Of a DNA stretch of 32,971 nt, positions 4,371 through 11,707 are shown piece after piece; positions within the stretch are counted from its first letter, which is position 1, and each line of letters starts with the position of its first letter. The notes under the pieces were generated by a model that saw nothing but the letters and a program-made list of their open reading frames with translations, searched no databases and had not been told where the DNA came from. Source of the stretch: a virus (Duplodnaviria > Heunggongvirae > Uroviricota > Caudoviricetes); IMG/VR virus record IMGVR_UViG_2563366843_000007; one strand, given 5' to 3'. A program made the position numbers and the translations under genes.

Positions 4371-4539
4371 TATCGCGCCCTCAACAATGAGTTTTGTGAT
4401 GCGGTGCCTGGTGCCTCCAGGTGACGTTAACCAGTTAACAATTAACGCCGGATACAGAGAATCCACCCATAACACTGTTTTTGGTTTTAACTGTTCCGCG
4501 TGCGCTCAGCCGCATTCACCGCATCACAAAATTCACTTT

Positions 4540-4597
4540 AAAAAGGGCGGCAGAGCAGTCACGGAGTAAAACTGATACCGCCAAACGTCACCAGAAA
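4540..4597 (-). ncRNA. dicF: DicF small regulatory RNA (ftsZ-targeting sRNA) with intrinsic terminator
   Basis: Minus-strand sequence UUUCUGGUGACGUUUGGCGGUAUCAGUUUUACUCCGUGACUGCUCUGCCGCCCUUUUU matches the DicF sRNA as I recall it, including the GGCGG/CCGCC terminator stem and U-tail; sits directly upstream of dicB. Confidence 0.8.
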
Positions 4598-4931
4598 ATT
4601 GATAACAGAGGGCGTTGCAGCGGGGTTGTCACTTAAGCGTATGGTCAACCTGACAACCCGGTGTCCTCAACGGGGGAAGGAATAACCCCGCCATACTTAC
4701 CGCCGCGCCATTTCGCGGATTGCCACAACCGGAAGCGCACGGTCGACGAAAATTTAACGACAGGCTATCTATGAACCAGCTACCTCGCCGTGCGCTTTCG
4801 CGTTATGGTCTGACTTTTCAGGGAAATATCCTTTCAGTAAACTGTCAGTGCCGGATGTTCACCCGTGTCCGGCGCACGCACTCCACCTCACCCGTGGAGA
4901 ACTCCTTAATTACCAACCCTCAGGAGGGTGA

Positions 4932-5165
4932 ATGTTAAAATCAACTCTTATTGCTAAATGCCTTTATCAAAATCGCATGGTAAGCAGCATTTCAATAGGC
5001 GAGTCTGCAGTTAAAAGTATTTTCGAAGAGTACTTCCCCGGGCATGATTTTAATAAATGGAATACCAAATTACCGCCAGCAGTTTCAACGCGTATTCTGA
5101 AAGCAACTGAAAGAGCAAGTACAATTCGCGTTAACTATTTCATTAAAGATTTGTGGGATCTTTGA
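4932..5165 (+). CDS. Hypothetical protein (77 aa), AT-rich, no recognisable motif
   Basis: ATG preceded by AGGAGGG at 5-nt spacing; ~38% GC; convergent with and overlapping the 3' end of the 135-aa minus-strand gene by 23 bp. Could instead be antisense to that gene's 3' UTR. Confidence 0.4.
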   Translation: MLKSTLIAKCLYQNRMVSSISIGESAVKSIFEEYFPGHDFNKWNTKLPPAVSTRILKATERASTIRVNYFIKDLWDL

Positions 5166-5550
5166 CATCCACAGAGCCTAAAGTATGTGCATATGGATGT
5201 GCTATTGTGCGCCCTCGCAGATTTGCATCATTTTCTAAATTCACTGAACGAAACAGGGCATCAACAAGGCTCTGTACAATGCAAAGGCAATCGAAGACTG
5301 TCGCTGTTTCTGTTTTGATTGATGAAAGAACATGGCCATTCACGCAAACAGAAATTACCCGTTCATTAACATCGCTTTCCTGCTTTTGATTATCAGAACC
5401 ATATAGCCCAGAAAAAGCATTGCGCACATTACGAACCATATTATCGATGGTTTCTTTTTTGGTGTATGCCGGGTCAATTTTCACCAGACTATCACCGAGA
5501 GTCGTTGCAGCAATTGTCTGGATTTCTTTTGGTAAATCTTTAAATTCCAT
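5143..5550 (-). CDS. Hypothetical protein (135 aa), AT-rich moron gene
   Basis: ATG with GAGG 6 nt upstream, immediately downstream of the ydfC-like gene; ~40% GC against a markedly more GC-rich left flank; no recognisable family motif. Confidence 0.55.
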   Translation of the reverse strand: MEFKDLPKEIQTIAATTLGDSLVKIDPAYTKKETIDNMVRNVRNAFSGLYGSDNQKQESDVNERVISVCVNGHVLSSIKTETATVFDCLCIVQSLVDALFRSVNLENDANLRGRTIAHPYAHTLGSVDVKDPTNL

Positions 5551-5572
5551 TATTAGCCTCGTTGGTTAGCTA

Positions 5573-5791
5573 TTAACGTGGGTATGTAATCATTCTGGCA
5601 ATGCTTAATGCCGCTGCTTTTTCCAGCCTGGTGATATCCTGCTCCAGAGCGGACAGATTTTCAGCCTGCTTAGCCCTGGCTTCATTGGCCCATTTCAGAT
5701 CCTGCGCTGCATTAATTTTCTGGCGCATCCACTCATAAAGTTCATCATCGGTATAGTCTGGCGCGATGATTACGGGTTCTCGTTTCTGCAT
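5573..5791 (-). CDS. YdfC-like protein
   Basis: 72-aa ORF in the position and of the size of Qin ydfC, upstream of dicF in the minus-strand operon. Confidence 0.55.
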   Translation of the reverse strand: MQKREPVIIAPDYTDDELYEWMRQKINAAQDLKWANEARAKQAENLSALEQDITRLEKAAALSIARMITYPR

Positions 5792-5811
5792 ACTGATTCC
5801 TCGCGGTGCTG

Positions 5812-5949
5812 TTTCGCTTATCAGCCGTTAGATTTTGCCGAACTGGAAAGCGCCTGTTTAAATTCGCTGAAGCTGAGAGTTTCTTCGCCTTCGGCAAGGC
5901 CTTCGAAGTATTCTTCGTAAGCCTTTTTCATGATTGTGTCGAAATCCAT
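5812..5949 (-). CDS. YdfB-like small protein (45 aa)
   Basis: Short ORF MDFDTIMKKAYEEYFEGLAEGEE... (below the 60-aa ORF track cutoff), starting 1 nt after the ydfA-like stop; tightly packed operon context. Confidence 0.4.
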
Positions 5950-5950
5950 A

Positions 5951-6106
5951 TCACTCACCTGAGTTTCTTTCCAGCCAGCGACGCGCGCCAGATTCGGTTT
6001 TAAACGTTTTGCTTTTGGTATACGTCATCGCGGTGAACGTACCGTCCTGGTTGGGGAACACGCCACATACCAGAGATTCGCTGTTGCCAAGATCGATAGT
6101 ATCCAT
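5951..6106 (-). CDS. YdfA-like small protein (51 aa)
   Basis: Internal ATG (MDTIDLG...) with GAGGT Shine-Dalgarno 5 nt upstream gives a 51-aa product, the size of Qin YdfA; the longest ORF extends to 6187. Confidence 0.5.
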   Translation of the reverse strand: MDTIDLGNSESLVCGVFPNQDGTFTAMTYTKSKTFKTESGARRWLERNSGE

Positions 6107-6287
6107 GCTGACCTCATTTCCCCTTAACGCCGGGGTAGCGGAACAAAAACCTGCTGCATAGTTATTAAAGTTGAACCCTGCCGTCATGTTCTTACGCCTC
6201 GGGCTGGCTACTTAACCCCTGACCACTGCCTGGTAACTCGAAGTATTGCCCTGCATTCTGTGGGGCGGGGTGGGTTGGTATGTTGTT

Positions 6288-6307
6288 AAGGTAACAAGAG
6301 TTACCTT
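6288..6307. promoter_or_regulatory. Candidate OL-type operator (AAGGTAAC-N4-GTTACCTT) in the promoter region of the ydfA-dicB operon
   Basis: 8-bp inverted-repeat arms around a 4-bp spacer, sharing the GTAAC-N4-GTTAC core with the two sites between the repressor and cro-like genes. Confidence 0.5.
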
Positions 6308-6345
6308 TAGAGTCAATACAATGTTGCAAAAGGTACATTTGAGGG

Positions 6346-6373
6346 CATAAAAAACCCGCAATGAATGCGGGTT
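6346..6373 (-). terminator. Rho-independent terminator downstream of the repressor gene
   Basis: Minus-strand hairpin ACCCGCA-UUCAU-UGCGGGU followed by a U-run, 6 bp after the repressor stop. Confidence 0.6.
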
Positions 6374-6378
6374 CTGAC

Positions 6379-7053
6379 TCAGTCTAAGTATTGATGTATT
6401 TGTGAAACTTTACCTTTAATGGTGTAACCACCATTCAGTTCGATGGGTTTGTAAAGCGGATTCAGTGACAACAGATAGATGTTTGGTCCGTCAATCGCAA
6501 CTTTTTTTAGTGTTACGTTTGGCGTTCCTTCCAATTGGATTAAGATTATTTTTCCCACCAGTTCTCTAATGTTACTTGAGCATGGTGTGATCAGCACGGT
6601 AGATCCGTCGGGGATGGTTGGGAGGCCGTTAGAGTTTGTCATCGCATCTCCCTCAACATGCAATAAAAAAGAGTTTTCAGCGGTTTTTGTCATGACATCA
6701 ACCCAATTCTTAATACCAGGAATCTCGGTTACTGGACAACTCATATCCCAATAACCAGCCTGTTCCCACGTTAAAACGGGCAACCGGGCGATGTTGTCAC
6801 TAATGTAAAGGTACTGATTCAGACGCAGATCATCGGTTTTATCGTGACCGTCCTTTCCATAAAGAATCCATTCAGGAGATTTGGAAAGCAATTTTGACAG
6901 TAGATGTAAATTCTCACCGTCAGGTTTTGAAGAGCCATTTTCCCATTTTGTTACGGATACACGAGATATGCCGATTGCTTTCGCAACCTGCTGTTGGGTT
7001 AATCCTACGTCTTTTCGACGATTCCGAATACGTTCGCTGATAGTGTTTTTCAT
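6379..7053 (-). CDS. CI/C2-type prophage repressor (N-terminal HTH, C-terminal S24 LexA-like peptidase)
   Basis: N-terminus MKNTISERIRNRRKDVGLTQQQVAKAIGISRVSVTKWENG... is an XRE-type HTH resembling P22 C2; the C-terminal half is assigned as S24 self-cleaving peptidase fold from overall resemblance to C2/CI (catalytic Ser/Lys not individually identified). Start at 7053 keeps both OR operators intergenic; the longest ORF extends to 7152 (TTG). Confidence 0.85.
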   Translation of the reverse strand: MKNTISERIRNRRKDVGLTQQQVAKAIGISRVSVTKWENGSSKPDGENLHLLSKLLSKSPEWILYGKDGHDKTDDLRLNQYLYISDNIARLPVLTWEQAGYWDMSCPVTEIPGIKNWVDVMTKTAENSFLLHVEGDAMTNSNGLPTIPDGSTVLITPCSSNIRELVGKIILIQLEGTPNVTLKKVAIDGPNIYLLSLNPLYKPIELNGGYTIKGKVSQIHQYLD

Positions 7054-7054
7054 G

Positions 7055-7115
7055 TAACCAATGTTACTACCAAGTGATGTTGCTATGGTTGACATCGATA
7101 TGTAACTATTGTTAC
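7055..7115. promoter_or_regulatory. OR operator/promoter region with two GTAAC-N4-GTTAC operators (7055-7068, 7102-7115)
   Basis: GTAACCAATGTTAC and GTAACTATTGTTAC, 47 bp apart, between the divergent repressor and cro-like genes; a TTGACA hexamer at 7089-7094 lies between them. Confidence 0.55.
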
Positions 7116-7144
7116 CCTCCTGCTCGAAATAACAGGAGAGTTTT

Positions 7145-7360
7145 ATGTTCAAAGATGATGTTCTGCGCTATTTCAAAAAAAAGCGACTAGTAGCTGAGGC
7201 TCTTGGAATTTCACATGTGGCTGTTGTGCGGTGGAAAGCAGTTATTCCCAAACTTCGCGCAATGGAACTGGATGAAATTACTAACGGTGAATTGAAATAC
7301 AACCCAGAACTTTACAAGAAGCAGGATAGCACCTCGAACGAAGGAAAGAATGATTCATGA
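7145..7360 (+). CDS. Cro/YdaS-like HTH transcriptional regulator
   Basis: 71-aa ORF divergent from the repressor; HTH-like segment RLVAEALGISHVAVVRW; GGAGAG Shine-Dalgarno. Confidence 0.7.
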   Translation: MFKDDVLRYFKKKRLVAEALGISHVAVVRWKAVIPKLRAMELDEITNGELKYNPELYKKQDSTSNEGKNDS

Positions 7361-7782
7361 AAATCAAGCATGAACACATCCGCATGGCGATGAATGCCTG
7401 GGCGCATCCGGACGGCGAGAAAGTACCGGCTGCGAAAATTACCAAAGCGTATTTCGAACTGGGAATGACGTTCCCGGAACTGTATGACGATAGCCATCCG
7501 GAAGCCCTGGCTCGCAATACTCAGAAAATATTCCGCTGGGTGGAGAAAGACACCCCTGATGCTGTTGAAAAAATTCAGGCGTTGTTACCAGCGATCGAAA
7601 AAGCAATGCCACCTCTGCTGGTGGCCCGAATGCGCAGCCACAGTTCAGCCTATTTTCGGGAGCTGGTGGAGACGCGGGAACGACTGGTGAGGGACGCTGA
7701 TGATTTTGTCGCAGTGGCGATCGCTGGTTTCAATCAGATGAATCGTGGTGGTCCGGCGGGAAATGCCCTGGTGATGCACTAA
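7357..7782 (+). CDS. YdaT-like protein (CII functional analogue family)
   Basis: 141-aa ORF beginning MKIKHEHI..., as I recall for Rac YdaT; overlaps the cro-like stop (ATGA). Confidence 0.6.
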   Translation: MKIKHEHIRMAMNAWAHPDGEKVPAAKITKAYFELGMTFPELYDDSHPEALARNTQKIFRWVEKDTPDAVEKIQALLPAIEKAMPPLLVARMRSHSSAYFRELVETRERLVRDADDFVAVAIAGFNQMNRGGPAGNALVMH

Positions 7783-7805
7783 AAGCACGGTGTTCGGAGT
7801 TTTTT

Positions 7806-11340: not shown

Positions 11341-11551
11341 AAACGGTTTGCGGGAAAAGGAGAGTTAAGTAGAATTGCAGCGGGTGCTTGAGGCTATCTG
11401 TCTCAGGCATGAACACCAAAAGGCAGATAGAGAAAAGCCCCAGTTAACATTACGCGTCCGGCAAGACGCTTAACATTAATCTGAGGCTCAATCTATGAAC
11501 GGCAAATCTAGGTTAGCCTCTTACGTGCCGAAAGGCAAGGAGAAGCAGGCT
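11341..11551. promoter_or_regulatory. hok mRNA leader region (possible mok-like upstream start and antisense Sok-like RNA)
   Basis: Structured leader upstream of hok; an in-frame upstream ATG at 11495 with GAGG; inverted repeat CTATCTG...CAGATAG at 11395-11439. Confidence 0.35.
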
Positions 11552-11707
11552 ATGAAGCAGCAAAAGGCGATGTTAATCGCCCTGATCGTCATCTGTTTAA
11601 CCGTCATAGTGACGGCACTGGTAACGAGGAAAGACCTCTGCGAGGTACGAATCCGAACCGGCCAGACGGAGGTCGCTGTCTTCACAGCTTACGAACCTGA
11701 GGAGTAA
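11552..11707 (+). CDS. hokD: Hok/Gef-family type I toxin (HokD/RelF-like)
   Basis: 51-aa product MKQQKAMLIALIVICLTVIVTALVTRKDLCEVRIRTGQTEVAVFTAYEPEE, typical Hok transmembrane and periplasmic domains, essentially as I recall RelF/HokD; AAGGAG Shine-Dalgarno. Confidence 0.8.
   Translation: MKQQKAMLIALIVICLTVIVTALVTRKDLCEVRIRTGQTEVAVFTAYEPEE

Follow-up and report, generated by a model that had tools for sequence, protein, structure and literature searches.

A convergent two-gene module between ydfC and DicF in the dicBF-type operon of lambdoid prophages

Between ydfC and the small RNA DicF, in the early-left operon of a lambdoid prophage, lie two small genes that face each other and overlap at their 3′ ends. 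They raise two questions, namely whether they are strangers to this operon or a part of it, and what they might be for. The prophage is that of IMG/VR record IMGVR_UViG_2563366843_000007, a virus of the Caudoviricetes, whose 32,971 nucleotides we refer to as the window. We call the two genes ORF77 (plus strand) and ORF135 (minus strand), as open reading frames (ORFs) of 77 and 135 amino acids (aa). An earlier note on this DNA had described them as an AT-rich insertion in the dicB operon and had compared them with prophage-borne defence, anti-defence or toxin–antitoxin genes acquired as a unit. Comparison with other prophages identifies them as a real, old, conserved and uncharacterised two-gene module at a polymorphic site.

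The pair across genera

Homologues of ORF77 (25–78% identity) are found in at least ten other genera, including Serratia, Klebsiella, Dickeya, Xenorhabdus, Yersinia, Morganella, Salmonella, Proteus and Providencia, and nearly all of them are exactly 77 aa long, with 55–72% identity in the genera named. The stretches MLKSTLIAKCL and FIKDLW are near-invariant among these proteins, with synonymous variation in the codons of the invariant residues, and between the window and O157 ORF77 has two synonymous and no non-synonymous changes, the protein being identical. The counterparts of ORF135 elsewhere in the Enterobacterales are stand-alone proteins of 75–90 aa that match only its C-terminal part, which we refer to as the core, and share the motif T..AVAADY...LE.EAN.SG(K/R)T..H. 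Because homologues of the same length with invariant motifs recur in other genera, both ORF77 and ORF135 are real genes rather than chance ORFs.

The two genes are also inherited together. Every locus inspected by hand (at least 14, from 11 genera, including Serratia, Klebsiella, Dickeya, Xenorhabdus, Proteus, Providencia, Citrobacter, Leclercia and E. coli) contains the convergent ORF77–core pair in the early-left region of a lambdoid prophage, with overlaps of 23–51 bp. When IMG/VR is entered from ORF77, a convergent core gene is present in 79/79 assessable loci and the overlap is exactly 23 bp in 70 of the 79; when it is entered from the core, ORF77 is present in 40 of the 44 loci, with an overlap of 23–51 bp in 40/40 pairs, and the four loci that have no ORF77 show truncation or a C-terminal extension. 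The 5426 complete E. coli genomes searched have 664 places with ORF77 DNA (in 650 genomes) and 675 with core DNA (in 656 genomes), the core being without ORF77 at about 11 places. ORF77 is never seen without the core and the core is occasionally seen without ORF77, as one would expect if ORF77 depended on the core. The view of the earlier note that the two genes form a unit is thus upheld well beyond the window, as are its coordinates for them and its account of their convergent anatomy (Table 1).

The genes on either side of the pair are fully reshuffled among genera, with RdgC, YfdP, CsrA or DicF downstream and cI or ydfC upstream. Its usual neighbour is an S24 cI-type repressor gene, which it adjoins in Serratia, Klebsiella, Dickeya, Citrobacter and Leclercia. 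In the window some 0.8 kb, with ydfABC, separates it from the repressor gene upstream, and a ydfC-like gene directly precedes the core in Proteus and Providencia as it does here. After the pair, Klebsiella has a DicF-like element that scores weakly (29.9 bits). In Xenorhabdus and Providencia prophages the gene directly downstream, in the operon sense, encodes a CsrA-like protein (L022, 3725–3919; L025, 3704–3907; both on the minus strand), and a different post-transcriptional regulator thus occupies the slot held in E. coli by DicF/dicB.

Alignment with the Qin prophage of E. coli K-12, which the earlier note had proposed for fixing the boundaries, shows that K-12 and phage Tritos are without exactly 634 bp of the window, and that the sequence on both sides of this cassette is 95% identical to K-12. 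The full-length cassette is present in 646 of the 5426 E. coli genomes. Phage Evi, unlike Tritos, is a natural isolate with the core. The spacer between ydfC and dicF is 976 bp in the window, in keeping with the earlier estimate of about 975 bp, and 340 bp in K-12, for which the earlier note had given about 260 bp. The difference in guanine plus cytosine (GC) content that it described was likewise found, at 39.4% for the cassette against 54.0% for the ydfC–DicF spacer to its left, with 51.5% for the entire window. Low GC relative to the flanks and a precise presence or absence with respect to K-12 are the observations that would suit a foreign toxin–antitoxin or defence moron recently acquired by a Qin-type dicB operon. 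We consider this first view very improbable, as it is largely refuted by synteny across genera: the module and its leader occur in the same operon context in distant genera, the genes are convergent and do not form an operon of their own, and they have no toxin–antitoxin or defence homology. K-12 and Tritos, moreover, keep the ORF77 leader up to its Shine–Dalgarno sequence. Since what K-12 has kept is the leader that precedes ORF77 elsewhere, loss from K-12 is the likeliest explanation, and from parsimony we infer that the module is probably ancestral to this type of operon and that K-12 Qin is a 634-bp deletion. The word insertion does not, then, fit a pair found in the lambdoid prophages of distant genera, and its low GC is a property of the module and not a sign of recent arrival. 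At the empty sites the deletion junction falls in the loop of a small hairpin, ACCAAC-9 nt-GTTGGT (about 3010–3035 in L003), the arms of which are about 640 bp apart in the window, where they flank the cassette (4913–4918 and 5562–5567).

Exchangeable cassettes at the ydfC–DicF site

The earlier note missed the architecture of ORF135: the protein is a fusion of an N-terminal domain with a mobile core. Its AlphaFold2 model, with a predicted local distance difference test (pLDDT) score of 75.9, has two domains and a disordered linker at residues 52–61. The N-terminal domain is common to E. coli and Salmonella proteins of 124–212 aa whose C-termini are mutually unrelated. An exhaustive search with a hidden Markov model of the core found only 71 relatives among 1.84 billion representative proteins, all but three of them shorter than 210 aa. 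The fusion partners of the core are a YdfC-like domain (P0193), a ClpX-type C4 zinc finger (P0194/P0112) and, in P0197, the module at the C-terminus of the 133-aa protein of another E. coli cassette, and the zinc finger is the sole recognisable domain fused among the 71. A short N-terminal motif, FK(V/D)xPxE, recurs among the core-fusion homologues.

Helix 1 of ORF135 exists as two diverged alleles, one in the window and one in O157 (dS 0.40, dN 0.27). A first crude count had pointed to strong positive selection in this gene, which the Nei–Gojobori method resolved into a diverged mosaic helix 1 (dN/dS 0.66) and a nearly invariant core. Two further readings of the core were also discarded, a Walker A motif in EANASGKT, for which the spacing is wrong and the domain too small, and an N-like antiterminator, as the domain is folded and has no arginine-rich motif.

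At least five cassettes, missed by the earlier note, occur at the ydfC–DicF site of E. coli prophages. The N-terminal domain is common to them, whereas the C-terminal domain and the convergent small gene differ from one cassette to the next. The commonest is that of the window, with its long ORF of 135 aa, its partner of 77 aa and their 23-bp overlap (the partner being carried by 650 of the 5426 genomes, the basis of all the counts that follow). Next are a 212-aa ORF with a 69-aa partner and abutting 3′ ends (L014; 597 genomes), a 179-aa ORF with an 80-aa partner and a 20-bp overlap (L015; 387 genomes) and a 133-aa ORF with a 92-aa partner and a 41-bp overlap (L004; 127 genomes). A 201-aa ORF made of the core and an extra domain, with a 63-aa partner and a 23-bp overlap, is the rarest (8 genomes; intact in L019 and L020, a pseudogene in L005), and a 124-aa form of the long ORF has no partner. 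The convergent partners are mutually unrelated and fall into different PHROGs. At the left the cassettes join the common sequence at CTCAGGAGGGTGAA, which is the same in L004 and L005, and at the right at the first codons of the long ORF, MEFKDLP. E. coli O157:H7 carries the 135/77 cassette in a PPompW-type prophage, and some O157:H7 strains hold more than one allele, in different prophages. Recombination swaps the variable C-terminal domain together with the convergent small gene, as one block between conserved flanks.

ORF77 appears to be a compact soluble protein. Its AlphaFold2 model is a five-helix globule with no long hydrophobic segment (pLDDT 96.7; predicted template modelling score, pTM, 0.85). 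The fold has no neighbour in the PDB, and a fold search of BFVD returned only its own homologue. Across genera it is better conserved than the core, with a mean identity of 56% vs 46%, and by the charges counted from the sequences ORF77 is basic and the core acidic. The exact 77-aa protein goes by the name 'dGTP triphosphohydrolase' in one public source, for which none of our searches gives support. We also rejected MLKSTLIAKC as a lipoprotein or signal peptide, as it is too short, has K at −1 and is packed in the model as a core helix.

Table 1. Positions in the window of the module, its parts and its neighbours in the operon
Feature	Position	Strand	Basis or remarks
Cassette, two genes, 634 bp	4919..5552		blastn and junction alignment against K-12 Qin and phage Tritos
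ORF77, 77 aa, small, basic	4932..5165	+	phrog_10348; WP_000920491.1; antisense to dicBF-type operon
ORF77 Shine–Dalgarno sequence, AGGAGG	4922..4927	+	4 nt 5′ of ATG; common to alternative cassettes at the site
ORF77 leader	4848..4918	+	homologous to leaders in other genera, retained in K-12; upstream alignment, 10 loci, plus further leaders
Convergent 3′ overlap of ORF77 and ORF135, 23 bp	5143..5165		conserved across genera
ORF135, 135 aa	5143..5550	-	phrog_1363; exact sequence WP_001605306.1; directly after ydfC in operon
ORF135 core domain, residues 56–135, about 77 aa, acidic	5143..5385	-	
ORF135 N-terminal domain, residues 1–55 (MEFKDLP...GLY), helical hairpin	5386..5550	-	
ORF135 Shine–Dalgarno sequence, GAGG	5557..5560	-	6 nt 5′ of ATG; outside cassette, also in empty sites
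ydfC	5573..5791	-	directly upstream of ORF135 in operon; ydfABC given as 5573–7791 region
ydfC–DicF spacer (DicF precursor region), conserved, GC-rich	4597..4918	-	95% identity to K-12; kept with or without cassette
DicF small RNA	4545..4596	-	Rfam RF00039, 76.7 bits vs gathering score 48
S24-type repressor, 257 aa	6379–7152	-	

Candidate functions of the pair

The earlier note recognised no motif in either protein, and this is borne out by Pfam, NCBIfam and PADLOC (no match for ORF77 or ORF135 at E≤0.01), by a PDB profile search, which was empty for both families, and by PHROGs, where both belong only to families of unknown function. Searches of Pfam, NCBIfam and PADLOC with the alternative cassette proteins, and with the alignments member by member, gave nothing consistent, and in PADLOC-DB 2.0 neither the two ORFs nor the core homologues nor the alternative cassette proteins have a significant match. 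The PGAP label for both genes is hypothetical protein. Close homologues at the same position, half of what the earlier note had named as a refutation, do exist, in O157:H7 prophages and about 650 complete genomes, and none has a known function. We found no description of either gene in the literature by accession, PHROG identifier or gene name, and neither of two published descriptions of the dicBF operon (PMC5069750, PMC10448788) mentions the 634-bp module. The function is therefore undescribed in literature and databases, as the earlier note had supposed; its guess at defence, anti-defence or a toxin–antitoxin role is plausible as a hypothesis.

The arrangement nevertheless resembles four kinds of known system, although the module is a member of none of them, as homology fails in all four cases. 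In pore-forming colicin operons (such as those of colicins A, E1 and Ia) a repressor-controlled gene is likewise followed by a small gene on the opposite strand and then by genes that damage the host, in polymorphic cognate pairs, and ORF77 (+) does lie between ORF135 (−) and DicF/dicB (−). The model of ORF77 is, however, a soluble five-helix bundle without the transmembrane helices of a membrane immunity protein, no colicin Pfam domain is matched and there is no similarity in sequence or fold; colicins are moreover plasmid-borne, whereas this is a phage element, and the asymmetry of presence and absence suggests that the small gene depends on the other, the reverse of what holds for an immunity gene. 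BstA/aba of phage BTP1 and SieB/Esc of P22 and lambda lie beside the repressor and the early-left operon, a place that our pair has in Serratia and four other genera but, with ydfABC and about 0.8 kb in between, only roughly in the window; they have the logic proposed below, that of a lysogen exclusion factor with its own antidote. They differ in having no homology to our proteins (BstA with its KilA-N/ANT domain, and SieB; none in Pfam or PADLOC, and PHROGs of unknown function only) and in that the antidote here would be a separate protein of the early operon, not a DNA element or an internal translation product. Type II toxin–antitoxin systems share with the module two small adjacent genes, one basic and one acidic, of which one is never found without the other, but ORF77 and ORF135 are convergent with a 3′ overlap in all genera and are not a co-transcribed bicistron; neither family homology nor an autoregulatory DNA-binding domain was recognised. 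Finally, in the CdiA-CT/CdiI proteins of contact-dependent inhibition (CDI) and in the Rhs proteins the N-terminal part is likewise conserved, the C-terminal domain can be swapped and a small neighbouring gene is matched to it, with several alleles in one species, whereas the cassette proteins are tiny (124–212 aa), cytoplasmic and without secretion or delivery domains, and have their partner on the opposite strand.

Our preferred reading, which we hold only tentatively, is that of an antagonist pair, with ORF77 as an effector expressed in the lysogen and the core as an antidote made early in the lytic cycle. In a lysogen, with the operon repressed, ORF77 would be made from a leader of its own. 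Induction or infection would send transcription from PL antisense across ORF77 and so silence it, and the same transcription would yield the core protein, which would neutralise the ORF77 protein. Convergent transcription and antisense RNA would in this way make expression of ORF77 and of the operon mutually exclusive. ORF77 would be harmless to the cell and harmful to phage development, so that superinfecting relatives are excluded; the core would serve the resident prophage as antidote and an incoming phage that carries it as counter-defence; and the several alleles might reflect an arms race among related prophages. We favour ORF77 as effector and the core as antidote because of the asymmetry in their co-occurrence, the higher conservation and compact fold of ORF77, and the opposite net charges of the two proteins.

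The leader of ORF77 contains an inverted repeat, GCCGG (4850–4854)...CCGGC (4869–4873) in the window and GCCTG...CAGGC elsewhere, and a GTGG... element. The repeat shows compensatory changes between genera (L007, L010, L024–L026 and L030), and might form a hairpin in the RNA of the operon or be a palindrome bound by protein over the −35 region. Polarity speaks for the antagonist pair: no gene but ORF77 runs antisense to the early-left operon, a sigma-70 site matching 10/12 is found in Klebsiella in the interval from cI to the core gene, and in most loci outside E. coli a conserved TG-extended −10-like element, TGGTATCYT, is present about 35 nt upstream of ORF77.

Several observations weigh against the antagonist pair. 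In the E. coli leader the TGGTATCYT element is degenerate and about 18 nt are inserted, and no convincing sigma-70 promoter on the plus strand was found at 4380–4931 of the window, so that ORF77 may be poorly transcribed here; even outside E. coli the conserved −10-like element matches at only 8/12, below the threshold of the scan. Neither protein resembles any known defence, anti-defence or toxin–antitoxin family. The 201-aa variant, in which the core has a different partner, fits only with an extra assumption. The pairwise divergences of ORF77 and the core across nine genera, compared as in a mirror-tree analysis, are uncorrelated (r=0.14, not significant), and thus give no signal of co-evolution. 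Overlapping 3′ ends and inheritance as a block could on their own account for the co-occurrence, and that the two proteins may bind each other, or that either may have a phenotype, is proposed from sequence. Confidence in the mechanism is low because the divergences are uncorrelated, the putative ORF77 promoter is weak or degenerate and there is no link to a known activity.

The lack of a co-evolution signal favours the idea that the two genes are independent morons, which travel together only through their 3′ overlap and the swapping of whole blocks at conserved flanks, these being the N-terminal domain on one side and the leader with its Shine–Dalgarno sequence on the other. The cassette boundaries do coincide with flanks common to all alleles, and the core can be combined with other modules and partners. 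Such a union of convenience would, however, have to survive the complete reshuffling of the flanking genes in 79 of 79 loci with the length of the overlap preserved, and linkage so tight amid such mosaicism is unusual for unrelated lambdoid genes; we think it unlikely.

The polarity of the pair might also be the reverse of that in the antagonist model. ORF77 is placed like the immunity gene of a pore-forming colicin, which separates the effector from the genes downstream and is read from the other strand. The long ORF would then be an early effector that is toxic to the host or takes it over, and the small convergent gene its cognate immunity, constitutive in lysogens and protecting against leaky expression and against the effector of superinfecting relatives. 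A conserved N-terminus with a variable C-terminus and a variable small neighbour does recall polymorphic toxin/immunity cassettes, and the operon neighbours dicF and dicB are themselves toxic to the host (PMC5069750). We nonetheless regard this colicin-like arrangement as doubtful, since long ORFs do occur without the supposed immunity gene (the core alone in 4/44 IMG/VR loci and at about 11 places in E. coli, and the 124-aa variant), the small gene never occurs alone, ORF77 is the better conserved and better folded of the two and no toxin motifs are present.

It is also conceivable that the proteins are secondary and that the module is a gate at the level of RNA, in which convergent transcription or antisense RNA from the ORF77 leader controls read-through from dicBp/PL into the toxic dicF–dicB, in the manner of lambda oop/cII or the face-to-face promoters of phage 186. 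Terminators have no space in the convergent overlap, and the terminator-like hairpins found on either strand are weak and lie away from the ORF ends and the convergence zone. The module stands directly upstream of DicF, or of the DicF-like RNA of Klebsiella, and DicF is cut from its polycistronic transcript through the action of RNase III and of RNase E, so that RNase III takes part in its maturation (PMC10448788). Against this gate, both ORFs are constrained as proteins, with synonymous variation at invariant residues, and ORF77 folds confidently; the gene downstream in Xenorhabdus and Providencia is a CsrA homologue and not DicF; a duplex between DicF and the ORF77 leader is no better than shuffled controls; and K-12 makes DicF without the module. 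It seems to us improbable.

The antagonist pair could also be one instance of something wider. The ydfC–DicF site as a whole might be an unrecognised 'duel' locus of lambdoid prophages, holding interchangeable antagonist pairs in which small lysogen effectors that exclude related phages face a modular chain of cognate antidotes (N-terminal domain, core and further modules) carried by each phage in its early operon, the two sides being mutually exclusive by convergent transcription. This extension we offer as a long shot.

The surrounding operon and the significance of the module

The prophage in the window is lambdoid and apparently intact, with terminase, portal and capsid genes further along. 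On the minus strand the order is S24-type repressor, ydfA/DUF1391, ydfB, ydfC, ORF135, DicF, dicB, ydfD/DUF1482 and an 826-aa exonuclease. DicB, YdfA (DUF1391), YdfC and YdfD (DUF1482), assigned by Pfam and by PGAP names in near-identical genomes, follow the repressor gene in the K-12 order and on one strand, and both this gene order and the presence of DicF identify the operon as the dicBF type of Qin-like lambdoid prophages. Outside the cassette it is the operon ydfABC-dicF-dicB-ydfD of K-12 Qin, which differs in being without the 634-bp module. An earlier comparison of dicBF loci displayed non-conserved ORFs, on which it did not comment (PMC5069750).

Other elements of the neighbourhood may be recorded here. 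Upstream of ydfA an inverted repeat, aaggtaac-aaga-gttacctt, is a likely operator of the dicBp/PL-type promoter, and just past the repressor gene there is a terminator hairpin, to which Rfam gives a weak Trp_leader match (repeat and hairpin at 6284–6310 and 6348–6375). In near-identical prophages a RelE/ParE-RelB or PaaA2-ParE toxin–antitoxin pair lies between the repressor gene and ydfA (L001, 5998–6469; L020, 1694–2172), which shows that accessory pairs in general have a landing zone in this neighbourhood. The spacer between DicF and dicB has a match to the small RNA STnc100 (4393–4533, minus strand) that is below threshold (39.8 bits; gathering score 47), and a sok antitoxin RNA of hok/sok type is found elsewhere in the prophage (11382–11557, plus strand; Rfam RF01794, 112 bits).

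About 12% of complete E. coli genomes carry the ORF77–ORF135 pair, and the four other cassettes occur in a further 8 to 597 genomes each, with O157:H7 among the carriers. Across the Enterobacterales the pair is conserved beside the immunity region, which is where prophages usually keep genes for conflict between phages. To see K-12 Qin as probably a deleted form, and ORF135 as a domain fusion, corrects the picture of this operon even if the two products are not antagonists. Should they be antagonists, they would amount to a new gene family for exclusion and counter-exclusion, would offer a fold of small size of which no relative has been solved and would be a natural case of expression switching by convergent overlap. 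And if the ydfC–DicF site were indeed a 'duel' locus, it would be a new class of defence and counter-defence between prophages, and one that a large share of E. coli genomes carries, O157:H7 among them.

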